This document shows positions 11,853 to 57,719 of a DNA stretch of 64,000 nucleotides, piece by piece; position 1 is the first letter of the stretch; each line of letters begins with the position of its first letter. Below the pieces are notes generated by a model. The model had not been told where the DNA came from and did not search any database. It saw only the letters and a program-made list of their open reading frames with translations. The position numbers and the translations under genes were made by a program. Source of the DNA: Bacillota bacterium (lineage in GTDB: Bacteria > Bacillota_I > Bacilli_A > RF39 > UBA660); the NCBI GenBank assembly GCA_003524085.1, contig DOEC01000006.1, forward strand, positions 1,146-65,145, written 5' to 3'.

Positions 11853-11864
11853 AAATTTTCCCTC

Positions 11865-12773: not shown

Positions 12774-12785
12774 AAATTTTCCCTC

Positions 12786-13694
12786 CTAACTAATTTGCAC
12801 AGTTTTGTTTATTTTAAATCCTACTATAGTTACTTGATTATCTTTTACATAATGAGCTTCAAACTTATTTACTGATTTTGTTATAATTATTCCAATAGTA
12901 CTATTTTGAGTTATAGTTTTCAAGTGTTCGTCAATGTAGTTCATATACGTTTTTATTTGGCCATAATCGCTTTTCTTATACTCTCTTACTTTTATTTCAA
13001 CTACACAAAAACAGTTCATTTTGTAATTGTATAAAAGATAGTCTATATAATTCTTTTTATCTCCAATATTGAGTTTATATTCTCTACCAATAAAAGAGTA
13101 TTCTCCACCAAGTTGATGCATAAAATCTTCTATATTTTCAAATATTATTTCTTGTAATATCTTCTCATTATAAAATTCATAGCTTTTATTTGGTGTCAAT
13201 ACTATCGGACTGGGTATGCTTTGAATTATTGAAAGCTCTTCTTTGTTTAAAATACCCTCTTTCGTTTCAGTTGAAAGTCTGCCATACTCATTACTTCTTA
13301 TTCTTTCAGCCAATGCTCTTTTGCTTAAATTATCTCGTTTAGTAATACTAATATAATACTTGATTTCTTCTACATTTTTTAATGGTAAAAGTAATTTATA
13401 ATGAGACCAAGTCAAAAGTTGCCCCACTGGAGCAACTTTTTGACTTAAATCATAAAATTGCTTCATTCTTGTTAATTCTGTAAAAGTATATCCCTTACCA
13501 AATTCTACCGTTAATTCCTTTGCATATTTTTTTACTATTCCTTCTCCATAATGTTTACCAGCTTCTGCTAGTTCCTTACCAATATTATAGTTCATTGTAA
13601 GTTTTACATTGTTTATCTGATAATTTTTAGCTATTACTTTAGCATTACCATTTATTATTTCATTCTTTATATTTTCTAAATAATTGTCTATCAT
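12786..13694 (-). CDS. DUF1016/YhcG-family PD-(D/E)xK nuclease-like protein, tandem copy 3
   Basis: As copy 2. Confidence 0.7.
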   Translation of the reverse strand: MIDNYLENIKNEIINGNAKVIAKNYQINNVKLTMNYNIGKELAEAGKHYGEGIVKKYAKELTVEFGKGYTFTELTRMKQFYDLSQKVAPVGQLLTWSHYKLLLPLKNVEEIKYYISITKRDNLSKRALAERIRSNEYGRLSTETKEGILNKEELSIIQSIPSPIVLTPNKSYEFYNEKILQEIIFENIEDFMHQLGGEYSFIGREYKLNIGDKKNYIDYLLYNYKMNCFCVVEIKVREYKKSDYGQIKTYMNYIDEHLKTITQNSTIGIIITKSVNKFEAHYVKDNQVTIVGFKINKTVQIS

Positions 13695-13925: not shown

Positions 13926-15368
13926 TTAAACAATTGAGAATAACATCAATACTAAAATGTTTACTATTGCAATTGTTATAACTACTTTTAATGCCCATTT
14001 GAACCAAGTTGAATAGTCTACTTTAGCAAGAGCAAGTCCTCCCATTATTGCTCCACAAGTTGGAGTTATTAAGTTTACTAATCCATTTGCACTTACAATA
14101 GTCATAGCCGCTACTTCAGTTGAATAACCTAAGCTTGCAGCAAGTGGTCCAGTTATTGGAGTTGAAAGTGTTGCAAGTCCACTACTTGATGGTACTAAGA
14201 ATGATAACACTATATGTAGTAAGTAGTTTAGTGGAACGAATACTAATTCTGGTAGTTTACTTAAATGTTCAGTTGCATTATAAATAATGTAATTGTCTAA
14301 GTAAGTTTGTTTCATTAATACAGAAGCTCCTCTTGCTACTGCTATTACTAAGATAACACCTATCATATCTTTTGTTCCATCAATAAATGTATCTACAAAC
14401 TCTTTTTCTTTGTAACCATTGATTAAAGATATTACTATACTCATTAAGAAGAACCAAAGTGCAGACTCGTAGAAGTACCAGTTACCTAAACTAGAGCCTG
14501 TAAGCCATCCAGTAAATCCATCAAAGAAAGTTATGTCAAATTCTCCCCATGGAATAAATCCTATAATCATTATTAAGAATGTTAAAGCAAAAACACATAA
14601 AGTTATTTTTTGTTTTGTAGTTAAAACTTCTTTTTGCTTTGATTTTTCCTCAAATTTACCAAATTCTTTTTCAGCTTCTTCTTGCTCTCTTAAAGAAAGT
14701 ATAGTTGAACCTTTATCTTTTTTAACTTTACTTGCATAAGCTAACACAAACAATGTTGATATTAGGTAAGCTAATAACCATAAGATTATGCCTATAAATA
14801 ATACAGTTCCTTGATTATATTCTACACCAGCTGCTCTTAAAGCAGATAATACAGCTCCTGTTGCAAATGGGTTAACTGTTGAACCAAGAACACCAGTACC
14901 AGCACCTAATAAAACTACTGCTGCACCTACAAGTGGGTCCATTCCTGCGGCAAACATCGTAGCTGCTAGAAGTACGTAGAAGCCAACTGTTTCTTCAAGC
15001 ATTCCATATGTTGTACCACAAATTGAGAAGATAAACATTAATATTGGTATTAACCATAATTCTTTACCTTTTAATTTTTGTACTAAAACTTTGATACCTG
15101 TTTCTAAAGCCTTAGTTTTGTCTATTATTTTAAGGAATCCTCCTAAAATAAGTACGAATATTGCAACATCTACAGCATTTTCAAATCCCAATATTGGTGC
15201 TAGTAAGATTTGGCTTAATTTAGCCCCTACTGTACCACTTCCATTTACTATTTCTTCACCAACGAATTTAGCATCTGGTAGTAAATGTGAAAGAATTCCA
15301 AGTACTACTATAACTATCATTATAATAGTATATGCTGATAACATGCTTCTATTCTTTTTCTTTGTCAT
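13926..15368 (-). CDS. YfcC/DcuC-like membrane transporter (putative arginine/ornithine antiporter of the ADI operon)
   Basis: Polytopic protein with YfcC-family signatures (NPF, YASKVKK); last gene of the arc operon. Confidence 0.55.
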   Translation of the reverse strand: MTKKKNRSMLSAYTIIMIVIVVLGILSHLLPDAKFVGEEIVNGSGTVGAKLSQILLAPILGFENAVDVAIFVLILGGFLKIIDKTKALETGIKVLVQKLKGKELWLIPILMFIFSICGTTYGMLEETVGFYVLLAATMFAAGMDPLVGAAVVLLGAGTGVLGSTVNPFATGAVLSALRAAGVEYNQGTVLFIGIILWLLAYLISTLFVLAYASKVKKDKGSTILSLREQEEAEKEFGKFEEKSKQKEVLTTKQKITLCVFALTFLIMIIGFIPWGEFDITFFDGFTGWLTGSSLGNWYFYESALWFFLMSIVISLINGYKEKEFVDTFIDGTKDMIGVILVIAVARGASVLMKQTYLDNYIIYNATEHLSKLPELVFVPLNYLLHIVLSFLVPSSSGLATLSTPITGPLAASLGYSTEVAAMTIVSANGLVNLITPTCGAIMGGLALAKVDYSTWFKWALKVVITIAIVNILVLMLFSIV

Positions 15369-16305: not shown

Positions 16306-17297
16306 TACTCTTCCCTCATTGTTAGATATATTACAGCTTTAATTGTATGTAATCTATTTTCAGCTTCATCAAATACTTTTGATTTTGGACTATTAAATAC
16401 TTCGTCAGTTACTTCCATTTCTTTTAGACCAAATTTTTCATATATCTCTTTTCCAATTGTTGTATTTAAATCATGAAATGATGGTAAGCAGTGTAAAAAT
16501 ATTGCGTTTTCGCTTGCATTTGACATAACACTCATGTTTACTTGATATGGACTAAGTAATTTAATACGACTAGCCCATACTTCATCTGCTTCTCCCATTG
16601 AAACCCATACGTCAGTATATATTACGTCAGCACTCTTAGTAGCAACATTTACGTCTTCTTCTAAAGTTATAGTACACCCATTAGTACTAGCAATTTCCTT
16701 ACAAGTATTAACTAACTCTTCTTGTGGCCATAATTCACGTGGAGCACATGCTACAAAGTTTATTCCCATTTTAGCACATACTACCATAAGTGAATTTGCA
16801 ACGTTGTTTCTAGCATCTCCCATAAATACTAACTTTAAGCCCTTTAAATATCCAAAGTTTTCTTCAATAGTCATAATATCTGCAAGCATTTGTGTTGGAT
16901 GAAATTCTGTTGTAAGTCCGTTCCATACAGGTACTCCAGCATTTTTGGCTAACTCTTCTACTATTGTTTGACTGTATCCACGATATTCTATTCCATCATA
17001 CATTCTACCTAATACTTTAGCAGTATCAGCAATACTTTCTTTTTTACCCATTTGACTAGCATTAGGATCTAAATACGTCACTCCCATACCAAGGTCAAGT
17101 GCAGCAACTTCAAAAGCACATCTTGTTCTAGTTGAAGTTTTTTCAAATAAAAGTACAATGTTTTTATTTGGTAAATATTTATGTTCAATATGTAATTTCT
17201 TTTTTTCTTTAAAATCTTTAGATATGTCTAGTAAAAACCTTATTTCTTCAGGTGTATAATCTAATAATTTTAAGAAATGTCTTCCTGTTAAATCCAT
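16305..17297 (-). CDS. arcB: ornithine carbamoyltransferase (catabolic)
   Basis: STRTRCAFE and HCLP motifs. Confidence 0.9.
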
Positions 17298-18541
17298 TAT
17301 ATATCCTCCCTAACTAGTGGCATACTCATACATCTTGGGCCACCTCTTCCACGTGATAATTCAGCACTTGGCATTTCAAGAACTTTTATTCCGTGTTCTC
17401 TTAGTATATTGTTAGTCATGTTGTTTCTATCGTATACTACTACTACACCAGGCGCTATACAAAGAGTGTTTGTTCCGTCATTCCATTGTTCTCTTTCACT
17501 AGATATTTTTTCTCCTCCAGCACATGGAATAAGTGTAATTTTCTTTCCAAGATATTTTTCTAATATTTCTTCTAAACTACCTTCTACTTTTTTAACATTT
17601 AAGTCTTCAAATGTAGTTGGATCATCTCCTTCAGTAATTTCGTAAACTTCTAGAGTGTTCATTATTCCTGGATGGTATGTAAACTTATCATAATCTATTT
17701 GTGTAAATACAGTGTCTAAATGCATAAATGCACGACTTTCTGGTATTTTGAAAGATAGTACTGTTTCTACTTCACAAGTAGGTTCTTTAAATAAGTTTTT
17801 AGCAAGTTCATCAATTGCGGCAGGCTCTGTTCTTTGTGAGATACCTACAGCAATAACTTTATTACTTATGTTTAATACGTCTCCACCTTCAATGTGGTAA
17901 GGTAGGTTTCTACTATAGTACCTTTTTACTTTACCCTTGAAGTCAGGATGATACTTGAATATAAAGTCAGCATATATAGTTTCTCTATTTCTAGTAACTG
18001 AATACATTCTATTTAGTATTGCCCCGTTACCACAGCTTGCGAATGGGTCTCTTGTAAAGTAGAGGTTTGGTATTGGGTCAGCTAAGAAGTCACTCTCATC
18101 ACTTACAAAGTCAACTAAGCTTTTTTCTACTTCTCTTTTTCTTAATGGTATTTCTTCTATTTTTATACCACTCATTGTTTTTAATACTAATTCTTTTTTA
18201 TCAGTAAAGCTATGTAAGTAGTCATATACTAGAGTTCTATATTTAGGAGTAGTTATTCCAGCTTCATAGATAAATTCTTTTAGAAATTCGTCTAGTATTT
18301 CTTCACTAATACTTAATACTTCACTAACTAGGTCTTCTAGATATACTACTTCTATACCATTTTCTTTTAGAATTCTTGCGAATTCGTCGTGTTCAGCTTG
18401 CGCGACTGGTAAGAAAGGTATATCATCAAATAAAAGTCTTCCTAATGTATCTGGAGTTAGATTAAGCAGTTCATTTCCAGGTCTATGAAGAAGTACTTTC
18501 TTAAGTGGACCTATTTCACTTTTAACATTAATTCCTTGCAT
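17297..18541 (-). CDS. arcA: arginine deiminase
   Basis: [22 protein letters not shown]..., 414 aa. Confidence 0.9.
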
Positions 18542-25604: not shown

Positions 25605-25997
25605 TTTTCTCTAAGTGCACGCTCACTTAAATTACCTCGTTTAAGTTATATTAATGTAATACTTGATTTCTCCTAAGTTTTTTAAAGGTAAAAGTAATTT
25701 ATAATGTGACCAAGTCAATTGGTCATCCAATGGATGACCTTTTTCAATAAAATTATGGAATAATCTCATGTATTTAAGATTTGTAATCCCGTAATTTGTA
25801 CCAAATTCTTTTGTTAATTCTTTTGCATACTTTTTAACTATACCTTCGCCGTAGTGTTTACCAGCTTCTGCTAATTCCTTTCCAATATTATAATTCATTG
25901 TTAGTTTTACATTGTTTATCTGATAATTCTTAACTATTAATTTAGCATTACCATTTATTATTTCACTCCTTATATTCTCTAAATAATTTTCTTCCAT
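25605..25997 (-). pseudogene. decayed DUF1016/YhcG paralog (copy 4), truncated at 118 codons with in-frame stops
   Basis: The N-terminal 118 aa are ~80% identical to copies 1-3. Where copy 3 has AAA, an in-frame TAA occurs (…KYYINIT*), more stops follow, and homology is lost near 25605. Confidence 0.7.
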
Positions 25998-26371: not shown

Positions 26372-26400
26372 TTGATAAGTAAATTGATTTTTGCTATAAT
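26372..26400 (+). promoter_or_regulatory. sigma-A-type promoter TTGATA-17-TATAAT for the dlt-like operon
   Basis: Read directly, 30 bp upstream of the RBS AAGGAAG. Confidence 0.55.
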
Positions 26401-26429
26401 ATTGATGTTTAAAAAAGGAAGTAAGAAGT

Positions 26430-27926
26430 ATGAAACAAGTATTAGAATATTTAGAAAAAAATGACAAAAATAAAACAGCAGTTATATGTGAAAATGAATC
26501 TATTACATATGAAGAGTTAATTAGTAAATCCAAACTAGTTGGGTCTAACCTTATAAATAAAGTTAAAATTAATGAACCAGTAATAGTTTTTATGGATAAA
26601 GGTATAACTACACTAGAAGTATTTTTTGGTATTTTATATAGTGGTGGGTGTTATAGTTTAGTAAATCCAGAGTTTCCTCAAAATAGAATTAAATCTATTT
26701 TAAATACTCTTGAAGCAAAATGCGTTATTACAAATATAGAAAACTATGAAAAAGCTAAAGAAGTTTTTAATGGAATAAATATAATTAAGTGTGAAGATTT
26801 AGTTAGTGGTAGTATTTTAGAAAGTGAATTAGAAAACATTAGAAGATCTAAACTAGACATAGACCCAGTATATATTAATTTTACAAGTGGTAGTACTGGG
26901 GTACCAAAAGGTGTTGTAGTAAGTAATAGAAGTATAATTGATTTTATTGATGTATTTACTAACCTATTTGATATTAAAGAAAGTGACATAATTGCAAACC
27001 AAGCACCATTTGATTTTGATGTTTCAGTAAAAGACATCTATAGCGCACTTTGTAAAGGTTCTACTTTGTTAATAGTACCAAAGAAATTATTTAGTAGTCC
27101 TGCTAATTTGCTTGATTACTTAGTTATAAACAACGCTACTACACTTATCTGGGCAGTCAGTGCATTATGTTTAATTACTACATTCCACGGCCTAGACTAC
27201 AAAGTTCCAACAAGTGTTAACAAAATAATCTATAGTGGTGAAGTAATGCCTCTTAAACACTTGAAAATATGGATGGATAAATTACCTAATGTAAGAGTAA
27301 TTAACGTATATGGTCCAACTGAAATAACTTGTAATTGTACATATCATGAAGTTGACAGAAGTAGAACTTATGTAGAAAATATTCCTATTGGTAAAAGTTT
27401 TCCTAATGAAAAAGTTTTCTTACTTGATGAAGAAAACAAACTAGTTAATACTCCTAATATTTCTGGAGAAATATGTGTAAGTGGAACTTGTCTTAGTTTA
27501 GGATACTATAATAATAAAGAAGTTACAGATAAAGTATTTATGCAAAACCCACTAAACAATAAATACATTGAACCTATTTATAAAACTGGAGACCTAGCAA
27601 TGTATGATGAAAATATGGACTTGTTTTTTAAAGGAAGAAAAGACTTTCAAATTAAATATATGGGCCACAGAATAGAGCTTGAAGAAATAGACACAGAAGT
27701 ACTTAAGTTAGATGGTGTTAAAAGATGTCTCACATTATTTGATGAAAAGAAAAGTAAACTTTGGTGTTTCTATGTAGGAGAAGTTACTAAAGAGGATATT
27801 ATATCTTTCTTAAAAGTAAATGTTCCAGAATACATGGTGCCTACTAAGTATGTTAAGTTAGAAGAGTTTACTCTTACTAAAAATGGTAAAATAGATAGAA
27901 ATGTATTAAAGGAGATGATTAAATGA
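26430..27926 (+). CDS. DltA-like amino acid--carrier protein ligase (adenylation enzyme)
   Basis: FTSGSTGVPKG, NQAPFDFDVSVKDIY, GRKDFQIKYMGHRIELEEID and TKNGKIDR blocks, colinear with DltA. Confidence 0.8.
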   Translation: MKQVLEYLEKNDKNKTAVICENESITYEELISKSKLVGSNLINKVKINEPVIVFMDKGITTLEVFFGILYSGGCYSLVNPEFPQNRIKSILNTLEAKCVITNIENYEKAKEVFNGINIIKCEDLVSGSILESELENIRRSKLDIDPVYINFTSGSTGVPKGVVVSNRSIIDFIDVFTNLFDIKESDIIANQAPFDFDVSVKDIYSALCKGSTLLIVPKKLFSSPANLLDYLVINNATTLIWAVSALCLITTFHGLDYKVPTSVNKIIYSGEVMPLKHLKIWMDKLPNVRVINVYGPTEITCNCTYHEVDRSRTYVENIPIGKSFPNEKVFLLDEENKLVNTPNISGEICVSGTCLSLGYYNNKEVTDKVFMQNPLNNKYIEPIYKTGDLAMYDENMDLFFKGRKDFQIKYMGHRIELEEIDTEVLKLDGVKRCLTLFDEKKSKLWCFYVGEVTKEDIISFLKVNVPEYMVPTKYVKLEEFTLTKNGKIDRNVLKEMIK

Positions 27927-29083
27927 ACTATGAAAATATTTTAAGTAAGTACTCTACTCCACTTTTTATCTATGACTGTGATAAGTTAGAACAAAGAGTT
28001 AATTACTTAAAAAATATGTTAGATACTGATTTATGTTATGCAATTAAAGCTAACTCATTTGTTATAAAAGAAATTGAACCATTAGTATCAAGAATTGAAA
28101 TATGTTCTTATGGAGAATACATGATATGTAAAGATAATGGTGTTAAAAATGATAAGATGGTATTAAGTGGGGTTAATAAAAACTATGATGAGTTTGAAAA
28201 AATTATAAAAGAAGAAAATAATATATTAAGATACACCATTGAAAGTATTACTCAGTTTAATATGTTAAAAGAGTTATCTAGTAAATATAAGAAGAATATT
28301 AATATACTACCTAGAATTACAAGTGGTAACCAGTTTGGAATTACAAAAGAAGAACTATATTATATAATAGAGAACTTAACAGAATTTATGACTTTAACAG
28401 GTATAGAATTCTTTAGTGGAACACAAAAACACAGTATTAAGAGAATTGTTAATGAGTTTACTCTAGTTAATGAGATATTTGATTATATAGAAAACACTTA
28501 TAAACTAACTGATTTAGAGTTAGAGTATGGTCCTGGGTTACCTGTTTACTATTTTGAAGAAGAGAGTTTTAATGAAGAAGAATTTTTAAATGAAGTTAAA
28601 AACAATATTCATACATTCTTTAAAGGTAGAAAAGTTATTCTTGAAATTGGAAGAAGTTTAGTAGCAAATTGTGGTGAATATATTACTAAAGTTGTTGATT
28701 TAAAAGAAAATAAGACTGGAAAATACGCTATTATTGATGGTGGAATTAATCATTTAGTATATTATGGTGGCACGATGGGAATGATGAGACCAAAGTTTGA
28801 AATACTAAACAAAAGTAATACCAAAGAAAATATATACAACATATTTGGGTCTCTTTGCACTATTAACGATATAATTGTTAAGAATGTAAGCTTGCCTGAG
28901 TTAGAAATAAATGATACATTTGTGTTTAAGAATACTGGAGCTTATTCAGTAACTGAAGGAATTAACCTATTTTTAAGTAGAGATATGCCTAAAGTGTTAC
29001 TGCTAAAAAATAAGAATGTGTTATTAGTAAGGGACAACATTAACACATATAAGCTAAATAGTCCTAATTATGGAGGTAAATAA
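27923..29083 (+). CDS. PLP-dependent fold-type III decarboxylase homolog (Orn/DAP/Arg decarboxylase family)
   Basis: STPLFIYDCDKL...CYAIKAN (PLP Lys), EIGRSL, IDGGINH and GSLCTIND blocks, colinear with LysA-type decarboxylases. Translationally coupled to the preceding gene (ATGA overlap). Confidence 0.65.
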   Translation: MNYENILSKYSTPLFIYDCDKLEQRVNYLKNMLDTDLCYAIKANSFVIKEIEPLVSRIEICSYGEYMICKDNGVKNDKMVLSGVNKNYDEFEKIIKEENNILRYTIESITQFNMLKELSSKYKKNINILPRITSGNQFGITKEELYYIIENLTEFMTLTGIEFFSGTQKHSIKRIVNEFTLVNEIFDYIENTYKLTDLELEYGPGLPVYYFEEESFNEEEFLNEVKNNIHTFFKGRKVILEIGRSLVANCGEYITKVVDLKENKTGKYAIIDGGINHLVYYGGTMGMMRPKFEILNKSNTKENIYNIFGSLCTINDIIVKNVSLPELEINDTFVFKNTGAYSVTEGINLFLSRDMPKVLLLKNKNVLLVRDNINTYKLNSPNYGGK

Positions 29084-29084
29084 A

Positions 29085-29315
29085 ATGGAAAAATTATTAG
29101 AAATATTAGAGGAAATCAAGCCTGGTGTAGACTATGAAAATATTGATACTTTAATTAATGACCACTACTTAGATTCACTTTCTATACTTTCTTTAATAAG
29201 TGAACTAGAAGATGAATTTGATATTGTTATACCAACAGTTGAAATAATACCAGATAACTTTAATTCAGTTAAAAGTATGATGGCTCTAATTAACAAATTA
29301 AAAGAGGAAGATTAA
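29085..29315 (+). CDS. DltC-like aminoacyl carrier protein
   Basis: LDSLSILSLISELEDEFDIVIP with the phosphopantetheine Ser in a DSL motif; 77 aa; GGAGG RBS. Confidence 0.75.
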   Translation: MEKLLEILEEIKPGVDYENIDTLINDHYLDSLSILSLISELEDEFDIVIPTVEIIPDNFNSVKSMMALINKLKEED

Positions 29316-29317
29316 TT

Positions 29318-30883
29318 ATGCAATATAGTGAGTTATCTTACTTTCTTTTTTTACCTTTAGTAATGTTACTTTACACTTTTACTCCTAAGAAATTTAGATA
29401 CATTACTTTACTAGTAGCAAGTTTATTCTTCTTTTATACATTAAGTGGAAAATTATTAATTTATGTCGTATATAGTACTCTTATAATGTACTTTGCTTCT
29501 TTATTAATTGACCACTTTAATGAGTTAGAAGATAATATAAACGAAGAAATGCCTAAAGAAGAAAAGAAAGCTTTAAAATTAAAATATAACAAATATAAAA
29601 AAATAACTTTAGTAATTAGTATACTCTTGCTTTTGTCTACACTACTACTAACTAAATATTTGAACTTCTTTATTACAGTAATAAATGATGTATTTAAAAG
29701 TGGTTTATCTTTAACACGTATTCTAGCGCCTATTGGAATTAGTTTTTATACTTTTGAAGTATTGTCTTATTTAATAGATATATATCATAAAAAATATAAA
29801 GCTAATAAAAATATTTTGAAATGTGCCTTGTATATAGTGTTCTTCCCAACTTTAATGGAAGGACCAATTGCAAGGTATGAACAAATTAAAGATAGTTTAT
29901 TTAGTGGAGAAACAATTAATTATACTAATATGTGTTTTGCTCTTCAAAGAATAGTATATGGTCTTGGTAAAAAGCTTATTATTGCAGACAGATTAAATCC
30001 TATAGTAAAAATGATATTTAATAATTATAGTAACTATAATGGTGGAGTTGTTTTATTAGGTGGAATACTTTATACCATTCAGTTATATATGGACTTTTCT
30101 GGAATTATGGACATTGTAATTGGTAGTGGGCAGATATTTAATATTAAATTACCTGAAAACTTTAAACAACCATTTTTTTCTAAAAATATAAGTGATTTTT
30201 GGTCTAGGTGGCATATCACTCTTGGAACGTTTTTTAAAGACTATATCTTCTACCCTATTTCATTATCTAGAATTTCTAGAAATATTACTAAAATCCTAAG
30301 AAAAAAACTTGGTAGTCATTTTGGACCTTTAGTAAGTGGTTCAATTGCTTTATTAGCAGTTTGGCTAAGTAATGGTTTATGGCATGGAGCAGGATACCAA
30401 TACATCTTATTTGGAATGTATCACTTTGTACTAATCTTACTTGGTAATATATGTATGCCATTAATTAATAGATTTTATGATAAGACAAAAATAAATAAAG
30501 AAAGTGTTTTTGTTAAGTGTTTTAGCATTTTAAGAACTACTATATTAGTAATATTTGGAGAAATAATATTTAGATCAAACTCTGTAAAAGATGCATTATC
30601 TATGATTAAAAGAATATTTACTAACTTTAGTTTTGATATAGTTAAACCTTTAAATAAGATAGGACTAGACATATACGATATGATTATTATTTTAGTTACT
30701 CTTATTGTTATAGTGGTTATTAGTATTTTAAAAGAAAAGAATATTAACGTTAGAGAAATTATTAGTAAAAAGCCTATCTATATTAGATGGATAATCTATT
30801 ATGCTCTTATATTATATGTTTTAATCTTTGGTGCTTATTTGGGTCCATATATTCCGGTTGACCCAATGTATGCTAATTTTTAG
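29318..30883 (+). CDS. MBOAT-family membrane O-acyltransferase (DltB/AlgI-like)
   Basis: Polytopic membrane protein carrying the MBOAT His motif WSRWHITLGTFFKDYIFYP. Confidence 0.75.
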   Translation: MQYSELSYFLFLPLVMLLYTFTPKKFRYITLLVASLFFFYTLSGKLLIYVVYSTLIMYFASLLIDHFNELEDNINEEMPKEEKKALKLKYNKYKKITLVISILLLLSTLLLTKYLNFFITVINDVFKSGLSLTRILAPIGISFYTFEVLSYLIDIYHKKYKANKNILKCALYIVFFPTLMEGPIARYEQIKDSLFSGETINYTNMCFALQRIVYGLGKKLIIADRLNPIVKMIFNNYSNYNGGVVLLGGILYTIQLYMDFSGIMDIVIGSGQIFNIKLPENFKQPFFSKNISDFWSRWHITLGTFFKDYIFYPISLSRISRNITKILRKKLGSHFGPLVSGSIALLAVWLSNGLWHGAGYQYILFGMYHFVLILLGNICMPLINRFYDKTKINKESVFVKCFSILRTTILVIFGEIIFRSNSVKDALSMIKRIFTNFSFDIVKPLNKIGLDIYDMIIILVTLIVIVVISILKEKNINVREIISKKPIYIRWIIYYALILYVLIFGAYLGPYIPVDPMYANF

Positions 30884-30894
30884 GAGGTAATGTT

Positions 30895-31818
30895 ATGAAA
30901 AATATATTAAAATCCACATTATTTTTAAGTATACTTTTAGTTATCATTATATATATGGGAAAAATCTTTACTCCTAAAGATAACACTTTAGAAAGTGGGA
31001 TGAATGAAGTAAGAGCTAATGGAATACTTGGAGAAAAAGATGATATTGATGTTATTATAATTGGAGACTCTTTAACATACAGTTCATTTATACCAATTGA
31101 GATGTATAAAGAATACGGGTTTACTTCATATGTAATGGGTACTCATGCACAAAGAAGTCATGATACTTATAAGTTACTTAAGAATGCTCTTAATTATCAA
31201 AAACCTAAAGTTGTAGTACTTGAAACTAATCTTTTATTTAGAAAATATAGTTTTAATAGAGATATGCTTAGTAAGCTTGAAACAATACTACCTTTCTTTG
31301 ATTATCATAATAGATGGAAAAATCTAAGTTTTAAAGATTTTACTAGTGAAATTAATTATACTTACACTGACCCGACTAAAGGATATATGTTAAAGAAAAG
31401 TGTTAAAAGTGGAAAGACTTATAATTATATGAAAAAAGATAGTAAAGTTACTCATATAGTTAATAGAAATTATGTTTATTTAGAGAAAATAAAAAAGTTA
31501 TGCAGTGAAAATAATATCAAGCTAATTTTGGTAAGCGCATCAAGTGAAAGGAATTATAACTTTAGTAAACATGAAAGTATTGAAAAATATGCAACCAAGA
31601 ATAAAATAGACTATATTGATTTAAACTTAGAAGATGTTAAAATTGACTGGGAAAAAGATACTACTGATAAAGGAGATCATTTGAATTATTTGGGAGCTTT
31701 AAAAGAAAGCAAGTTTTTTGGTAATATTTTAAAAGATAGGTATAATCTGGTAGATAAAAGAGGTACACTAGAAAGTTGGGATAAACTAGAAATGGTGTAC
31801 AATAAAAAAGCTAGATAG
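30895..31818 (+). CDS. membrane-anchored SGNH/DltD-like protein (putative acyl-transfer partner of the MBOAT)
   Basis: N-terminal TM anchor and a GDS-type block (VIIIGDSLTYSS); sits where dltD would be in a dlt operon. Confidence 0.45.
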   Translation: MKNILKSTLFLSILLVIIIYMGKIFTPKDNTLESGMNEVRANGILGEKDDIDVIIIGDSLTYSSFIPIEMYKEYGFTSYVMGTHAQRSHDTYKLLKNALNYQKPKVVVLETNLLFRKYSFNRDMLSKLETILPFFDYHNRWKNLSFKDFTSEINYTYTDPTKGYMLKKSVKSGKTYNYMKKDSKVTHIVNRNYVYLEKIKKLCSENNIKLILVSASSERNYNFSKHESIEKYATKNKIDYIDLNLEDVKIDWEKDTTDKGDHLNYLGALKESKFFGNILKDRYNLVDKRGTLESWDKLEMVYNKKAR

Positions 31819-32170
31819 TATAACATACTACACTAGCTACTGCATAAACTTCATCATGCGTAATTGAAAGGCTAAATTTTAGTCTTTCTTTTTTTATGTA
31901 TTCACTTAGTTTTCCATAGAAATTAAAGTAAGGCATGCCATTATTATGTAACACTTCTATATCAAGGATACTATATACGCTTAAATTTACTCCTAAGCTT
32001 TTTAAAAGAGCTTCTTTGGCAGCGAATACTCCCGCCTTTGTTTCTATGCTTTTATGACTAGCAAAATACTCTAATTCACTACTTGTAAACACACTACTTA
32101 ATTTTTTTATTTTGTTTATACTTTCAACCCTGACTATATCTATTCCATTAGTTATCATTTTTTTCCTCAA
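31811..32170 (-). CDS. acpS: holo-[acyl-carrier-protein] synthase (4'-phosphopantetheinyl transferase)
   Basis: GIDIVRVESI...FAAKEALLKSLG...SITHDEVYAVASV; 119 aa. Confidence 0.8.
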   Translation of the reverse strand: MRKKMITNGIDIVRVESINKIKKLSSVFTSSELEYFASHKSIETKAGVFAAKEALLKSLGVNLSVYSILDIEVLHNNGMPYFNFYGKLSEYIKKERLKFSLSITHDEVYAVASVVCYTI

Positions 32171-34127
32171 GAGTACTTTCTTTTTGCGCTACTTTTTTAA
32201 AGTAGTCTGTTTTTAATGTTAAATCATTCTTCTTTATTAATTCACTTATATAGTGGTTCATGTTTTCTAAGTCAGTTATATTTATCCATTTACCATTAGT
32301 TACTTCTCCACCCTCAACATAAACTTTTCCGTTATACCAAGAGTAATCACTAAAGAATACGTATCCATTATAATTTTTAGATAGAGCATTAGTACCTATA
32401 TAATTATTAGAATTATAGTCTATCCCATATAAATTAAGTATTGTTGGAAGTATATTTAACTGACTTGTTACATCAGTAACTGTCTTTTTACTCTTACCAT
32501 CATATATAAAGAATGGTGTATGATTTATCAAGTTATTTGATGTTTCCTTGTATTTATCTAGTATAGTTTGGTCACTTAATGTATATAAGTAATGATCAGT
32601 AAATACGACTATTGCTGTGTTAGACATAAGATTTTTTTCTTCAAGTTTATTTAGAAGAAGTTCTACCATATAGTCTGTTTCTTTTGCTTGTCTTAAAGCA
32701 CATTCTTCTTCTGTTAATGTAGGTAATTTATAGTCTTTTGGAAGTTTGTCAACATTCAAGTTTTCTAAAGCATCTAATTCTACTAATCTTTTACATACAC
32801 CTTTTTCAGTACTAAATGGTAAGTGACTACTATAAGTAATGATATAGTCTACAAATTTTTTTTCACTAAACATTCTATTACTAAAGTCCTCATTTAAAAT
32901 TAGTTCTCTATCTAACTCATATTCTTTATTTTTATACTCATACATATCAACTAGACCATAATAGTTATCATATCCCCAGTTTTTATAGTTAACTCCCCTA
33001 CTATAGAATTCGCTTGTATTCATGTGAAATGCATTAACCGAATAGCCTAAGTTCTTAAATAGTTTTGACAAAGTATAAGGAAATGTGTTTTTACTAAATG
33101 AATAAGCGTTTTGTGTATAACTTAGTGGTGTTATAAAACCAGTATTAACAGCAAATTCACTATTAAAAGTACTTCCTCCACCATTATAATATGAGTAATG
33201 ATTTTTAAAGTTTATTCCTTTATTCATTAGTTTATATAAAGTTGGAGTGTTTTCTTTAGTTAACATCCACGAGTCTACACCTTCTAATTGAAGTATTATT
33301 AAGTTTTTGTCTTTTAATAAACCAGTGTACCTATCTGTAGTTTTTTCATCTTCCATGTTATAAATACCATCTAAAAATGACATTTCTTCTTCGCTAGTTG
33401 TTTTTTTAGGTTTTAAGAATGTTACATAAAAATTTCTTACATTGTATTCATAAAATCCACTTATTCTCATACTTTTATTGTTATCATTAAAGCTTATGTA
33501 AATGTTTCTAGGATTACGCCAGGTTGACCAAGTAAGTTCTTTGTCAGATTTTCCGTACACTAGTGGTGTAAGAGTGTGTCCTACTAAGAAGATTACTAAA
33601 ATTACTGCTAGTTTTTTATATCTATTTTTTTCTACTTTTGGATAAAATTTAAATAAGTATATAGTTAAAGATAATATTAAAAGCATAAGTATGTAAACCC
33701 ATATGTTACAGTTAATAATCGCATCCATGAAGTAGCCTGAGCCTTCTCCTGCAAGTAATACTAGAGAAAAATCAAAGAATGTATCTGTCATACTATAGTA
33801 GACATTGTTTACTGTAAACAAGGCAAAACTAAGGATAAAAAATACTACGTATATAGATTTACCTATTTTTCCCTTAAATGAAGTACTAAGTCCAATTATT
33901 AGAGTTACCCATAATAAAGTAAATAAATTTGGGGCTAATCTATATATGCCATAAAAGTTTATTTTATATCCTAAAATTCTTGTAAACAAGTCCATCAATA
34001 TAAATGGAATACTTATTAATATTATACTTTTATTTCTTATAAAAAAGGCGATTATCTTTTTAAATATGTTATCTTTTTCTTTTATATTTTTCTTTTTTTC
34101 TTTCACATCTTTTTTCATTTTAATCAC
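32148..34127 (-). CDS. LtaS-family sulfatase-domain membrane protein (lipoteichoic acid synthase-like)
   Basis: Five N-terminal TM helices followed by an extracellular sulfatase/phosphoglycerol-transferase domain. Confidence 0.7.
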   Translation of the reverse strand: MIKMKKDVKEKKKNIKEKDNIFKKIIAFFIRNKSIILISIPFILMDLFTRILGYKINFYGIYRLAPNLFTLLWVTLIIGLSTSFKGKIGKSIYVVFFILSFALFTVNNVYYSMTDTFFDFSLVLLAGEGSGYFMDAIINCNIWVYILMLLILSLTIYLFKFYPKVEKNRYKKLAVILVIFLVGHTLTPLVYGKSDKELTWSTWRNPRNIYISFNDNNKSMRISGFYEYNVRNFYVTFLKPKKTTSEEEMSFLDGIYNMEDEKTTDRYTGLLKDKNLIILQLEGVDSWMLTKENTPTLYKLMNKGINFKNHYSYYNGGGSTFNSEFAVNTGFITPLSYTQNAYSFSKNTFPYTLSKLFKNLGYSVNAFHMNTSEFYSRGVNYKNWGYDNYYGLVDMYEYKNKEYELDRELILNEDFSNRMFSEKKFVDYIITYSSHLPFSTEKGVCKRLVELDALENLNVDKLPKDYKLPTLTEEECALRQAKETDYMVELLLNKLEEKNLMSNTAIVVFTDHYLYTLSDQTILDKYKETSNNLINHTPFFIYDGKSKKTVTDVTSQLNILPTILNLYGIDYNSNNYIGTNALSKNYNGYVFFSDYSWYNGKVYVEGGEVTNGKWINITDLENMNHYISELIKKNDLTLKTDYFKKVAQKESTLEEKNDN

Positions 34128-34570: not shown

Positions 34571-34685
34571 AGTTTCCCCCTAGTAAAGTGTATGATTATT
34601 TTTTTATTTAATTCCATAATTTAGCAGTTGACTATACAAACAAAGACGTGTTATACTTAATGCGAACAAAGGATGGTGTTTGTCA

Positions 34686-35929
34686 TGGAAGAAAGAAATA
34701 TTTTATGTATTGATTTAAAGAGTTTTTTTGCTTCAGTTGAATGTATTGAAAGAAATTTAGACCCGTTTACTACTCCCTTAATTGTTGCTGATCCATCTAG
34801 AAAAGGTGGGGCGATTACTCTTGCAGTTACTCCATATATGAAAACTCTTGGTGTACCTTCTCGTGGAAGAGTTTTTGAGATACCTAAAGGAATTAAATAT
34901 ATTACAGCTACTCCTAGAATGAGTTTGTATGTTAAGAAAAGTAAAGAAGTTATTAATTGTTTTTTAGATTTTGTAAGTAAAGAAGATATGCATGTGTACT
35001 CTATAGACGAAGCGTTTTTAGATGTTACTGATTATTTAAAGTTATATAAGATGGATGATGTTACTTTAGCTAAAAACATAATGGCTAGAATTAAAGAGAA
35101 GACAGGACTTACTAGTACGTGTGGAATTGGGCCCAACTTACTTCTTGCTAAGGTTGCACTTGATATTGAGAGTAAACATAGTCCTGACTTTATCGCTAAG
35201 TGGACTTATGAAGATGTGAAGACTAAGTTATGGAATATAACACCATTAGACGAGATGTGGGGAATTGGATCTAAAACTATGAAAAAACTAAATGATCTAG
35301 GAATATATAAGGTTGGAGATATTAATAAGTATGGTAAAGAGTTTTATAAGAAAAGATTTGGTGTGTTAGGCGAAGAGTTGTATTTGCACGCGAATGGGAT
35401 AGATTATAGTAATATTAAAAATGATAGATATGAAGTTAAAAATAAAAGTTATGGACTTAGTCAGATATTATATAAAGATTATACTCCTAGTGAAGTTATT
35501 TTAATTGTTAAAGAGATGTGTGAGACCGCTACTAAAAGACTTAGAAGTAATAAAAAAGCATGCGAAGTAGTTGGTTTTGGTATTGGATACTCTAGAAGTG
35601 TTGGTGGTGGGTTTTATCATTCTAAGAAGTTATCTTCTCCTACTGATAAAGATAGCGTTATTTATGAAGTGTGCAAAAGTATACTTGATGCGTATATTGA
35701 AGAACTTCCTATTAGAAAGGTAAGTATTTCTCTTGGTAAATTAAGTGATAATAATTATGTACAGTTAAATTTATTTGATACAAACGAAGAAAGTTATGAT
35801 GAGACTATGAAAACAATTGACGAGATAACTAAGAGATTTGGGGATAATGCTATTTTAAAAGCGTCTAGTTTACTTGATTATAGTACAATTAAAATGCGTA
35901 ATAAGAAGATGGGTGGACATAATAAGTAA
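34686..35929 (+). CDS. Y-family (translesion) DNA polymerase, UmuC/UvrX/YqjW-like
   Basis: ILCIDLKSFFASVEC...LIVADPSRKGGAITLAVTPYMK; start at MEERN with an AAAGGA RBS. Confidence 0.8.
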
Positions 35930-35939
35930 TGGTGATATT

Positions 35940-36245
35940 ATGTATAGAAAAATGATTAAATGGAAACCATTTAATACCTTACTTAAGTATAAAGATATTT
36001 TAGAAATTGATAAAAATAGACAGTTAGTTGATAAGCCTGTTATTATGGAAGACAGGATATATGAAATTAATGATGTGTTAAAGAGTGTGAATTCTTCTAC
36101 TTTAGTTAGAGTAAAATATTTTAATAAAGGAATGCTATTATATAAAGAAGGATATGTTAGTAAAATTGATACAATAGAAAAATATATTCTAATAGATAGA
36201 TTTAGAATATATTTTAGGGAACTTATTAAAATTGAAGTTATTTAG
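35940..36245 (+). CDS. YolD-like protein (accessory partner of Y-family polymerases)
   Basis: About 100 aa, immediately downstream of the polymerase gene, as the yolD/yqjX genes are in Bacillus. Confidence 0.55.
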   Translation: MYRKMIKWKPFNTLLKYKDILEIDKNRQLVDKPVIMEDRIYEINDVLKSVNSSTLVRVKYFNKGMLLYKEGYVSKIDTIEKYILIDRFRIYFRELIKIEVI

Positions 36246-39310: not shown

Positions 39311-39387
39311 GGGGAATTAGCTCAGTTGGCTAGAGCACCTGCCTTGCACGCAGGGGGTCGCGGGTTCAAGTCCCACATTCTCCACCA
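39311..39387 (+). tRNA. tRNA-Ala (anticodon UGC), CCA encoded
   Basis: Cloverleaf readable by eye with G3:U70 and anticodon loop CTTGCAC; one C:A mismatch in the T-stem. Confidence 0.8.
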
Positions 39388-46130: not shown

Positions 46131-46207
46131 TGGTCGGGAAGACAGGATTTGAACCTGCAACCACTCGGTCCCAAACCGAGTGCTCTACCAAGTTGAGCCA
46201 CTTCCCG
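46131..46207 (-). tRNA. tRNA-Pro (UGG)
   Basis: Cloverleaf by eye: CGGGAAG acceptor, anticodon loop UUUGGGA, CCA encoded. Confidence 0.85.
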
Positions 46208-46212
46208 ATAAA

Positions 46213-46289
46213 TGGCGTCCCCAAGAGGAGTCGAACCCCTAACCTTTTGATCCGTAGTCAAACGCTCTATCCAGTTGAGCTATGAGGAC
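46213..46289 (-). tRNA. tRNA-Arg (ACG)
   Basis: GTCCTCATAGCTCAACTGGATAGAGC..., anticodon loop CUACGGA. Confidence 0.85.
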
Positions 46290-46332
46290 AGCCTGTCCAA
46301 AATATATATAAGCTCCGGCTGGCTTTTAAAAA

Positions 46333-46408
46333 TGGTGGCTTCAGTTGGAATCGAACCAACGACACCAAGATTTTCAGTCTTGTGCTCTGCCAACTGAGCT
46401 ATGAAGCC
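46333..46408 (-). tRNA. tRNA-Phe (GAA)
   Basis: GGCTTCATAGCTCAGTTGG..., anticodon loop CUGAAAA. Confidence 0.85.
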
Positions 46409-46412
46409 ACAA

Positions 46413-46488
46413 TGGCGGTTCCGACGGGAATTGAACCCGCGATCCCTCGCGTGACAGGCGAGTGTGATAACCGCTACACCACGGAACC
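46413..46488 (-). tRNA. tRNA-Asp (GUC)
   Basis: GGTTCCGTGGTGTAGCGG..., anticodon loop CUGUCAC. Confidence 0.85.
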
Positions 46489-46495
46489 TTATTTT

Positions 46496-46572
<77 letters not shown>

Positions 46573-46590
46573 ATGTTAGTTTTTTAATTT

Positions 46591-46683
46591 TGGCGGAGGA
46601 AAAGGGATTTGAACCCCTGCGCCGCTTTCACGACCTCCTGGTTTTCAAGACCAGTCCCTTCAGCCAGACTTGGGTATTCCTCC
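46591..46683 (-). tRNA. tRNA-Ser (UGA), long variable arm
   Basis: GGAGGAATACCCAAGTCTGG..., anticodon loop CUUGAAA, 93 nt. Confidence 0.85.
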
Positions 46684-46690
46684 AACAAGA

Positions 46691-46779
46691 TGGTGCCTCG
46701 GGCCGGACTTGAACCGGCACGGTATTTAACTACCGAGGGATTTTAAGTCCCTTGCGTCTACCAATTTCGCCACCGAGGC
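46691..46779 (-). tRNA. tRNA-Leu (UAA), long variable arm
   Basis: GCCTCGGTGGCGAAATTGGTAGACGC..., anticodon loop CUUAAAA, 89 nt. Confidence 0.85.
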
Positions 46780-46803
46780 GTGTCACAATTTTTTATTAAA
46801 AAA

Positions 46804-46879
46804 TGGTGACCCGCTGGAGATTCGAACTCCAGACCCCTTGATTAAAAGTCAAGTGCTCTACCGGCTGAGCTAGCGGGTC
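46804..46879 (-). tRNA. tRNA-Lys (UUU)
   Basis: GACCCGCTAGCTCAGCCGG..., anticodon loop CUUUUAA. Confidence 0.85.
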
Positions 46880-46891
46880 AATATTATAAAT

Positions 46892-46967
46892 TGGTTGCCT
46901 CGGCGGGATTCGAACCAGCGAAATGCACGAGTCAAAGTCGTGTGCCTTACCACTTGGCTACGAGGCA
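46892..46967 (-). tRNA. tRNA-Gln (UUG)
   Basis: TGCCTCGTAGCCAAGTGGTAAGGC..., anticodon loop CUUUGAC; one U:C mismatch in the T-stem. Confidence 0.75.
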
Positions 46968-46974
46968 ATCTAAG

Positions 46975-47058
46975 TGGTGGAGAGACATGGATTCGAACCA
47001 TGGAACCCGAAGGAACAGATTTACAGTCTGCCGCGTTTAGCCTCTTCGCTATCTCTCC
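46975..47058 (-). tRNA. tRNA-Tyr (GUA), long variable arm
   Basis: GGAGAGATAGCGAAG..., anticodon loop CUGUAAA, 84 nt. Confidence 0.85.
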
Positions 47059-47065
47059 AAAAAAA

Positions 47066-47141
<76 letters not shown>

Positions 47142-47147
47142 AAATTA

Positions 47148-47224
47148 TGGTGGGCGACGAGAGACTCGAACTCCCGACCTCCTGCTTGTAAGGCAGATGC
47201 TCTAACCAACTGAGCTAGTCGCCC
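47148..47224 (-). tRNA. tRNA-Val (UAC)
   Basis: GGGCGACTAGCTCAGTTGG..., anticodon loop CUUACAA. Confidence 0.85.
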
Positions 47225-57715: not shown

Positions 57716-57719
57716 ATTA

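Follow-up and report, generated by a model that had tools for sequence, protein, structure and literature searches.

We analysed 64,000 nt of DNA from a Bacillota bacterium (contig DOEC01000006.1 of assembly GCA_003524085.1, positions 1,146 to 65,145, forward strand). This whole stretch is referred to as the window; its G+C content is ~27%. Its central feature is a cassette of five co-directional, nearly abutting genes on the plus strand (26430-31818, intergenic gaps of ≤ 14 nt), which encode an adenylating ligase, a pyridoxal phosphate (PLP)-dependent decarboxylase, a small carrier protein, a membrane-bound O-acyltransferase (MBOAT) as well as a membrane-anchored protein with SGNH fold (gene 5). 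The cassette resembles the Dlt system of D-alanylation, from which it differs by the integral decarboxylase gene located between the ligase and carrier genes. On the opposite strand lie acpS and a gene for an LtaS-like protein. All seven open reading frames (ORFs) had been called in a first-pass annotation of this DNA; they are present, and their domain identities, gene 5 excepted, are borne out by profile searches (Table 1).

Genes and signals at the locus

The stop codon of the ligase gene and the start codon of the decarboxylase gene share the sequence ATGA, and AAGGAG can be read upstream, in agreement with the translational coupling of the first two genes that the first-pass annotation had proposed. 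ATG 29085 is most likely the start of the carrier gene, yielding a protein of 76 aa, because GGAGG is located 7 nt upstream and the Met is invariant in the family. The 3' ends of acpS and gene 5 overlap by 8 nt. Conservation within the AcpS family begins at residue 5.

The promoter candidate upstream of the ligase gene is the top-scoring site of a consensus scan between 25500 and 34700, with 11 of 12 consensus matches plus the TG extension. The consensus promoter claimed for this position is thus the best match in the region, but such sites are no commoner than chance (68 observed, 65.9 expected from shuffled sequence, hence no enrichment), and we regard it as a plausible promoter only, since the density of promoter-like sites does not exceed the shuffled expectation. 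A 5' riboswitch upstream of the cassette was considered as well and is unlikely: the Rfam matches in the window are tRNAs only and the putative leader is ~30 nt long.

Table 1. Features of the cassette and of the adjacent genes in window coordinates.
Feature	Position	Strand	Description
Promoter candidate, sigma-70 type	26372..26400	+	TTGATA, 17 nt spacer, TG-extended TATAAT; ~30 nt before ligase start
Ligase, adenylating, NRPS A-domain type, 498 aa	26430..27926	+	AMP-binding PF00501, E 3e-59
Decarboxylase, fold-type III PLP, BtrK-like, 386 aa	27923..29083	+	Orn_DAP_Arg_deC (PF00278), Orn_Arg_deC_N (PF02784)
Carrier protein, stand-alone, 76 aa from ATG 29085	29085..29315	+	PP-binding PF00550; mechanical ORF starts at 29070
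MBOAT, 521 aa	29318..30883	+	PF03062; DltB-like core (residues 2-419) plus C-terminal extension with two transmembrane helices
MBOAT C-terminal acyl-shuttle hexapeptide P-M-Y-A-N-F, predicted acyl-tyrosine Y518	30863..30880	+
Gene 5, membrane-anchored SGNH-fold protein, 307 aa, N-terminal transmembrane helix	30895..31818	+	Predicted extracytoplasmic acyltransferase
Terminator-like hairpin followed by T-run	31866..31888	+	Consensus scan, pattern match only; 48 nt past the gene 5 stop, within the acpS coding region
acpS, AcpS-type 4'-phosphopantetheinyl transferase, convergent	31811..32170	-	PF01648, TIGR00556; likely true start ATG 32158
LtaS-like protein, co-transcribed with acpS	32148..34127	-	PF00884 sulfatase-type domain, five N-terminal transmembrane segments

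Conservation and distribution of the cassette

A survey of gene neighbourhoods, as suggested by the first-pass annotation, covered 88 related loci (two genome contigs, six contigs retrieved via decarboxylase homologues and 80 metagenome contigs). The decarboxylases encoded there share 42-100% identity with that of the window. The same five-gene unit recurs with identical order of ligase, decarboxylase, carrier protein, MBOAT and SGNH protein in all loci long enough to show it, and the flanks are unrelated. Such an arrangement is far beyond chance. Moreover, the ligase and decarboxylase genes overlap at 40 of 61 distinct junctions and are found within 20 nt of each other at 56 of them. The decarboxylase is an integral part of the cassette; a role as a passenger is ruled out because its gene is colinear in the loci long enough to show this and usually overlaps the ligase gene.

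Downstream, acpS is adjacent and convergent in 36 of the 58 loci with enough sequence (62%). This conserved adjacency supports the functional tie between acpS and the carrier protein suggested earlier. The LtaS-like gene is found next to the cassette in 11 loci only, all of them belonging to the closest clade (decarboxylase ≥ 66% identical), and on this distribution it was rejected as a part of the conserved unit. The earlier view that it supplies the acceptor polymer is therefore based on an adjacency confined to that clade. As to the protein itself, its PDB matches are all lipoteichoic acid (LTA) synthases or primases (best E 1.7e-17), and it scores 95 bits against the LtaS model of NCBIfam (cut-off 970).

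Two-component systems beside envelope-charge operons are common. Among 55 loci, nine (L006, L007, L017, L052, L077, L079-L081 and L085) have an orthologous OmpR-type response regulator and histidine kinase directly upstream of the ligase gene on the same strand, and in L083 and L084 the pair is divergent. The regulators are 56-64% identical across loci. The pair is absent from the window, but in some lineages it is likely to serve the cassette as its own envelope-stress regulator.

A scan of genome contigs with the single decarboxylase sequence returned only two near-identical contigs of metagenome-assembled genomes. The window belongs to a human-gut lineage of metagenome-assembled genomes; the contigs near-identical to it originate from human gut metagenomes and are labelled 'uncultured Bacilli bacterium'. 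Scanning of metagenomes yielded at least 445 confirmed relatives among the 600 stretches examined. Homologues carry the source names Mycoplasma sp. CAG:776, Traorella sp. and Clostridia bacteria, and the host spread given here rests on these few names.

The decarboxylase resembles BtrK and is no LysA

Compared to LysA, the diaminopimelate (DAP) decarboxylase, the second protein of the cassette has the same fold, a similar length and the same PLP-binding and catalytic residues. K42, E241, R244, C312 and Y341 are invariant in its family and H170 is nearly so. Since these residues are conserved, the decarboxylase is expected to be active. The lysA model TIGR01048 is its top NCBIfam match, with a score (175 bits) far below the cut-off (298 bits).

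The difference lies in the substrate site. In the T. maritima DAP decarboxylase the L-centre end of DAP is held by R285, which binds the carboxylate, and by E315, which binds the amine; the E315T variant loses most of the activity on DAP (PMC8277567). Both distal residues are replaced in the cassette family, the Arg by an invariant Tyr280 (DGGINHLVYYG versus DAGMNDLIRP in DAP decarboxylases) and the Glu by an invariant Thr313 (LCTIND versus ICE(S/T)GD). A profile of the family (18 members) searched against the PDB finds BtrK first (E 1.4e-41), SbnH next and then the DAP decarboxylases. BtrK is an L-glutamyl-[BtrI carrier protein] decarboxylase, and it shares the C-T and DGG(I/M)xH motifs with the cassette family. 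Judged by score, distal residues and family profile, the enzyme is not LysA and resembles BtrK. A housekeeping lysA gene inside a standard dlt operon was excluded on the basis of the colinear loci, the low lysA score and the loss of both distal residues; LysA further differs in that the cassette enzyme is embedded between ligase and carrier genes in the sampled loci.

One feature of the structural model of the decarboxylase concerns residues 281-284 (the YYGG/TMGM loop). They form the only internal stretch of low confidence (pLDDT < 50) and replace the Arg-bearing substrate loop of DAP decarboxylases. In the model this loop may represent a mobile active-site lid which touches the carrier protein.

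Homologues of the decarboxylase on Bacillus plasmids are only ~28% identical and have a different, Btr-like context. An example is found on the Bacillus mycoides plasmid NZ_CP150649.1 (12021-27160, L089 in our locus list), where a 28% identical homologue is annotated as 'lysA' next to genes for an ATP-grasp protein, an acyl-CoA dehydrogenase, a phosphopantetheine-binding protein, AcpS and an AMP-binding protein. Its surroundings suggest an uncharacterised thiotemplated cluster of the Btr/Cta kind, with a probably mis-annotated decarboxylase. It shows that such enzymes are mis-annotated routinely and that such modules travel with a dedicated phosphopantetheinyl transferase.

The ligase pocket differs from that of DltA and points to an acidic substrate

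The ligase scores 311 bits against the general adenylation domain model TIGR01733. With the DltA models it stays far below the cut-offs (TIGR01734, 286 bits, cut-off 560; NF003417, 300 bits, cut-off 476). Its best matches in the PDB are adenylation (A) domains of non-ribosomal peptide synthetases (NRPS; E-113), and DltA chains follow at ~E-53 or weaker. One member of the family has been named 'amino acid adenylation domain-containing protein' by the NCBI pipeline.

The ten Stachelhaus positions were read against the sequences of GrsA-PheA (1amu) and B. subtilis DltA (3e7w), both verified against the PDB. The window ligase has the code D-V-K-I-I-S-V-C-(N/C)-K and the family D-V-K-[I/T/V]-[I/L/M]-S-[V/L/I]-C-(N/C)-K, in which all 68 members have Lys239. 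The code of B. subtilis DltA is D-L-M-T-M-C-T-V-(V/A)-K, which differs in all 68 members at positions 236, 239, 301, 322 and 330, and also at 331 if YGPTE is aligned ungapped. Two of these changes affect the D-Ala pocket itself: the D-Ala-selecting Cys301 of DltA is replaced by Ser and Met239 by Lys. The first-pass annotation had suggested inspecting the DltA specificity residues; the exact D-Ala residues are not present in the ligase. It had further held that the transferred substrate is something other than plain D-alanine, and this agrees with the missing specificity residues and with the scores of all Dlt equivalog models far below cut-off. From the sequence, plain D-alanine is very unlikely as the transferred group.

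Across the family the pocket segments NQAPFDFDVSVKDI, WAVSALCL and YGPTEITCNCT do not vary, so that a single fixed substrate is implied. D235, the residue that holds the amine, is kept and none of the ten positions is acidic. A basic residue at position 239 is typical of Glu-activating domains and of the domains of microcystin synthetase for iso-linked methylaspartate (MeAsp) or Glu, and would suit an acidic substrate in either orientation. The code with its invariant Lys239 likewise points to an acidic substrate. A further parallel is provided by VinN. According to reviews, D230 of VinN (D235 in GrsA) holds the amine, the bulkier F231 and S299 occupy positions 236 and 301, and the alpha-carboxylate is bound by S299 and R331. 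Val236 and Ser301 of the ligase are located where VinN makes room for a beta-amino acid with F231 and S299, so that Ser301 matches the alpha-carboxylate-binding serine.

Two explanations that assign a different task to the decarboxylase have to be weighed at this point. The first is a supply function prior to loading: the enzyme would produce a free amino acid (e.g. L-lysine from meso-DAP, or a product of the D-ornithine type), the ligase would load it, and the polymer would become lysylated or similarly modified. True DAP decarboxylases are indeed the best matches of the single sequence, lysA is the top NCBIfam model, the fold is indistinguishable from that of DAP decarboxylase and all PLP catalytic residues are present. 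Against this stand the invariant Tyr and Thr in place of both residues at the far end of DAP and the lysA score far below cut-off, and also the ligase, whose invariant Lys239 and lack of an acidic code residue are a poor fit for the cationic side chain of Lys or Orn. Moreover lysine is abundant, so that a dedicated, colinear and translationally coupled supply enzyme is hard to rationalise. We consider a supply function unlikely. The decarboxylation of a diamino-dicarboxylate such as DAP, which the first-pass annotation had offered as an example, thereby loses its footing, as the DAP-binding Arg and Glu have become Tyr and Thr and the Lys of the ligase is unsuited to a cationic product such as lysine.

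The second explanation is an alanyl ester, generated either from Asp that is loaded via its alpha-carboxyl group and then beta-decarboxylated and/or racemised on the carrier by the PLP enzyme to (D-)alanyl-S-carrier, or by a racemase feeding a DltA-like ligase. The decarboxylase has its fold in common with alanine racemase and matches Ala_racemase_N near the threshold (23.1 versus 24.1 bits); Lys239 fits alpha-loaded Asp equally well, and the beta13-beta14 loop of the ligase is DltA-like in length. To our knowledge, however, there is no fold-type III enzyme for beta-decarboxylation. The C-terminal domain of decarboxylase type and the catalytic Cys loop are retained in the family, the characterised enzyme nearest to it by profile removes the alpha-carboxyl group of a carrier-tethered substrate, and the ligase has neither the D-Ala-selecting Cys of DltA (Ser at 301) nor its Met239. 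An alanyl ester is accordingly rather improbable. The racemase or epimerase activity which had been considered for the PLP enzyme comes down to the sub-threshold Ala_racemase_N match alone, as expected from the shared fold.

A carrier-fed MBOAT with its own predicted shuttle tyrosine

The carrier protein contains its phosphopantetheine serine in an LDSL motif, and this residue (S36 in ORF numbering) is invariant in 65 sequences. It falls short of both DltC models (NF003464, 28 bits, cut-off 68; TIGR01688, 16 bits, cut-off 52). The acpS product exceeds the cut-off of its model TIGR00556 (59 bits, cut-off 45).

The MBOAT aligns with the DltB model TIGR04091 over residues 2-419 at 154 bits (cut-off 375). 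R297-W298-H299 and H356 are invariant in 71 sequences. Beyond the DltB-like core two hydrophobic transmembrane helices are located at residues 452-470 and 491-509, followed by a C-terminus which reads DP[I/M]YAxF in nearly all of the 71 family members, with Y518 and F521 invariant. In bacterial MBOAT-SGNH pathways the acyl group passes via the tyrosine of a C-terminal FXYXXF acyl shuttle, whose acylation has been shown in PatA and DltX; in Dlt systems this motif resides on the separate microprotein DltX, and in systems of PatA/AlgI type the MBOAT itself carries it on two additional transmembrane helices (PMC12148441). The terminus of NgPatA is FIYANF, that of the window MBOAT PMYANF. No small DltX-like ORF with a C-terminus of the FXYXXF type was found upstream of or within the operon.

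By sequence gene 5 could not be placed. Searches of Pfam and NCBIfam and of the family profile against the PDB gave noise (HRas, E ~0.1) and sub-threshold GDSL matches only, and no sequence match to the DltD family was obtained. The predicted structure shows an SGNH fold with an invariant GDS serine (Ser59) and His262, and PatB, OatA and DltD are among its structural neighbours. At E ≤ 1e-30 the gene 5 profile recovers 3,090 cluster representatives (50% identity), not all of which need belong to cassettes with a decarboxylase.

Two deviating forms of the gene were observed. In one contig of the sample (L006/L025, 11029-12857) the SGNH gene is duplicated in tandem; the copies share 43% and 49% identity with the window protein, a hint of two acceptors or of a subfunctionalised final transfer step. 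A protein of 924 aa (P0257) matches the gene 5 profile in two stretches and may thus have arisen by fusion or by internal duplication, members of the family otherwise measuring ~315 aa.

With Dlt the cassette shares an ATP-dependent adenylating ligase that loads a small stand-alone carrier primed by an AcpS-type phosphopantetheinyl transferase, an MBOAT that takes the aminoacyl group from this carrier, and a membrane-anchored SGNH-fold protein as the final extracytoplasmic transferase; passage of the acyl group through the tyrosine of an xxYxxF motif is also expected. This raises the question of whether the operon is an ordinary dlt variant that carries out the usual D-alanylation of teichoic acids, with the decarboxylase as a passenger of housekeeping role. 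The gene logic is like that of dltABCD, and three of the proteins have DltA, DltB and DltC as their closest named families in NCBIfam. However, all Dlt equivalog hidden Markov models (HMMs) score far below their cut-offs, Lys239 and Ser301 stand where DltA has Met239 and Cys301, the DltX microprotein is missing and the shuttle motif is instead fused to the MBOAT on two extra transmembrane helices, and the decarboxylase gene is colinear in the sampled loci and usually overlaps that of the ligase. An ordinary dlt operon is thus highly improbable.

The likeness to PatA/PatB comprises the MBOAT with catalytic His, the C-terminal shuttle on two extra transmembrane helices and an SGNH partner with Ser and His that is anchored by one transmembrane helix. 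PatA/PatB and AlgI systems use acetyl-CoA and are stated to have no ligase and no carrier protein (PMC12148441), in contrast to the cassette, which encodes ligase, carrier and decarboxylase. As the donor is supplied by this dedicated set, the transferred group should be aminoacyl and not acetyl. Being carrier-fed like Dlt, yet equipped with a self-contained shuttle like PatA, the cassette is a hybrid of both types.

Relation to decarboxylation on carrier proteins

Decarboxylation of acidic amino acids by type III PLP enzymes that act on Asp or Glu only in the carrier-tethered form is established for several modules. BtrJ/BtrI/BtrK convert Glu to gamma-aminobutyrate (GABA) and CtaD/CtaE/CtaF convert Asp to beta-alanine, CtaF being inactive on free Asp. 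VinN/VinL/VinO act on 3-methyl-Asp, FlvN/FlvL/FlvO form beta-alanine from Asp, and BolO/BolC/BolN follow the same logic. VinN and FlvN are AMP-forming adenylation enzymes, BtrJ and CtaD ATP-grasp enzymes. In all these modules, as in the cassette, a loading enzyme, a stand-alone carrier and a PLP decarboxylase of the Orn/DAP/Arg family are encoded together; with Vin, Flv and Bol the cassette also shares the AMP-forming adenylation enzyme as loader. The basic residue and Ser301 in the ligase pocket would moreover fit the recognition of a free alpha-carboxylate.

The modules differ from the cassette in their destination, since they feed polyketide synthase (PKS), NRPS or aminoglycoside pathways and the cassette feeds an MBOAT-SGNH exporter. 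A pathway to a small molecule or lipid has to be considered, in which a beta-aminoacyl thioester serves a diffusible natural product or a membrane lipid and MBOAT and SGNH protein act on a lipid or glycolipid head group. It is true that every characterised trio of ligase, carrier and type III decarboxylase belongs to secondary metabolism, and that a comparable module with its own acpS lies in the Bacillus plasmid biosynthetic cluster. Yet genes for PKS, NRPS, transacylase, thioesterase or tailoring enzymes are missing from the company of the cassette, both in the window and in the sampled loci, and near the cassette in the window no assembly-line genes occur at all. An MBOAT with C-terminal shuttle tyrosine next to an anchored SGNH protein is, furthermore, a documented architecture for the acylation of extracytoplasmic polymers (PMC12148441). 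If a glycolipid or an LTA anchor were the acceptor, this would agree with an ester on an envelope polymer rather than compete with it. We deem a small-molecule or lipid product improbable.

A distant parallel is seen in the exosortase A-associated pair TIGR03098/TIGR03099, whose function is unknown. The window ligase scores 170 bits against the former (cut-off 592) and the decarboxylase 159 bits against the latter (cut-off 478). Ligase and type III decarboxylase thus also occur as a pair in exopolysaccharide-linked loci of other bacteria, a parallel set beside the cassette by HMM scores alone.

A proposed pathway

Taken together, the sequence comparisons support a Dlt-like, carrier-dependent MBOAT pathway with an integral decarboxylase. 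By analogy with the systems above, we propose that the operon puts an aminoacyl ester on a cell-envelope polymer, with Asp or Glu being decarboxylated on the carrier and exported by the MBOAT-SGNH pair; we rate the chances of this full pathway as even. Decarboxylation of an acidic amino acid tethered to the carrier by its side chain, as known from BtrK, VinO, FlvO and CtaF, had not been considered in the first-pass annotation and is better supported than the chemistry offered there.

We propose the following course, whose first step and membrane steps are suggested by the conserved motifs and the mechanisms of Dlt and PatAB. AcpS would turn the 76-aa carrier protein into its holo form. The ligase would activate L-aspartate (most likely) or L-glutamate at the side-chain carboxyl group and thioesterify it to the carrier, and the BtrK-like decarboxylase would strip the alpha-carboxyl group from the tethered substrate, resulting in beta-alanyl-S-carrier, or in gamma-aminobutyryl-S-carrier in the case of Glu; these two steps are suggested by analogy with the Vin, Flv, Btr and Cta modules and by the active-site evidence. 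The conversion of Asp to beta-alanine is favoured over that of Glu to GABA, because every characterised adenylation-type loader of such logic uses Asp or MeAsp. His299 of the MBOAT is then expected to move the aminoacyl group from the phosphopantetheine arm via the pore to Tyr518 of PMYANF at the outer face, from where Ser59 of the SGNH protein would take it over and esterify a hydroxyl group of the surface polymer. The host has a peptidoglycan wall, as seen from a class B penicillin-binding protein with PASTA domain (679-2598), and in the lineage of the window the neighbouring LtaS-like enzyme may make the acceptor. Like D-alanylation, the resulting cationic omega-aminoacyl groups would reduce the negative charge of the surface.

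Several points weigh against this proposal. With regard to the ligase, the beta13-beta14 loop has the length found in DltA and is not shortened, and there is no Lys or Arg at 330/331 as in VinN, Lys239 being used instead. Since the basic residue is located at 239 rather than at 330/331 and the loop is unshortened, the ligase is analogous to VinN and stands outside its subfamily. The full beta-amino-acid signature of VinN is hence not reproduced and activation of the side-chain carboxyl is not demonstrated by the sequence; Asp or Glu loaded via the alpha-carboxyl would fit Lys239 as well. Six of the ten code positions moreover resemble those of the serine code (D-V-x-x-L-S-L). Concerning the decarboxylase, a PDB search with the single sequence ranks true DAP decarboxylases slightly above BtrK, and the predicted fold is equally like DAP decarboxylase (TM-score 0.85, H. 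pylori enzyme) and BtrK (0.84). The fold search was consequently dropped as support because it favours neither of the two. The shuttle motif of the MBOAT begins with Pro, the published FXYXXF with Phe. Finally, searches of the accessible literature brought up no beta-alanyl or GABA esters, be it for teichoic acids or for related polymers, and we infer substrate identity, on-carrier timing and acceptor by analogy rather than from biochemistry.

Other genes of the window

Several copies of a YhcG/DUF1016 PDDEXK nuclease gene are present on the minus strand. A truncated copy of 118 aa with the DUF1016_N domain only (25641-25997) lies directly upstream of the promoter region of the cassette, and three tandem paralogues of 302 aa, one of which was checked against Pfam, are located at 10944-13694. 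Also on the minus strand, an arginine deiminase gene (17297-18541) precedes two ORFs that lack an annotation and the gene for a DcuC-type anaerobic C4-dicarboxylate carrier (13926-15368). This carrier could in principle import aspartate-related dicarboxylates, a hypothetical link to the cassette.

Just past the LtaS-like gene, the genes for a Y-family (ImpB/UmuC-type) DNA polymerase and a YolD-like protein overlap (34673-36245, plus strand), a combination typically seen in mutagenesis modules of the SOS response or of mobile elements. Twelve clustered tRNA genes (46134-47224, minus strand) explain a local rise of the G+C content to ~0.40, and one more tRNA is encoded at 39311-39384 on the plus strand. 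Two neighbouring large ORFs of 511 and 441 aa (56180-59045, minus strand) have no Pfam match at E ≤ 1e-4.

Significance

The cassette recombines the export logic of Dlt and PatAB with the on-carrier decarboxylation logic of Btr and Vin, and it is widespread and unannotated. Full-text literature searches returned no description of a dlt-like operon with a decarboxylase, and none of a carrier-fed MBOAT-SGNH pathway besides Dlt; an earlier mention of the cassette in Schultz et al. 2023 is possible. Annotation hides the cassette: the decarboxylase is at risk of being labelled lysA, the ligase receives a generic adenylation name and the SGNH partner has no family.

For surface-charge tuning in Gram-positive bacteria, D-alanylation by Dlt serves as the textbook case; resistance to cationic antimicrobial peptides depends on it, as do the control of autolysins and immune signalling in the host. 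The cassette suggests a parallel pathway of different chemistry which is apparently common, given that the gene 5 family alone comprises more than 3,000 clusters (50% identity) and that colinear loci number in the hundreds in metagenomes from the human gut and elsewhere. If the proposed pathway holds true, this would be the first MBOAT-SGNH system found to join a carrier donor with a self-contained shuttle tyrosine, bridging Dlt and PatA/AlgI, and the first case of thiotemplated decarboxylation outside secondary metabolism. A loaded carrier would then gain 115 Da and subsequently lose 44 Da, and mild alkali would free beta-alanine or GABA from cell walls.

More tentatively, and with somewhat less than even confidence, we suggest that many gut Firmicutes (Erysipelotrichales-like Bacilli, Clostridia) carry a beta-alanyl or gamma-aminobutyryl surface ester made by tailoring on a carrier and by export through an MBOAT with its own tyrosine. 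Such an ester would be a second, chemically distinct counterpart of D-alanylation and maybe more stable to hydrolysis than the D-alanyl ester, because its amine is further away from the ester bond. It could affect the resistance of gut commensals to cationic antimicrobial peptides and their sensing by the host.

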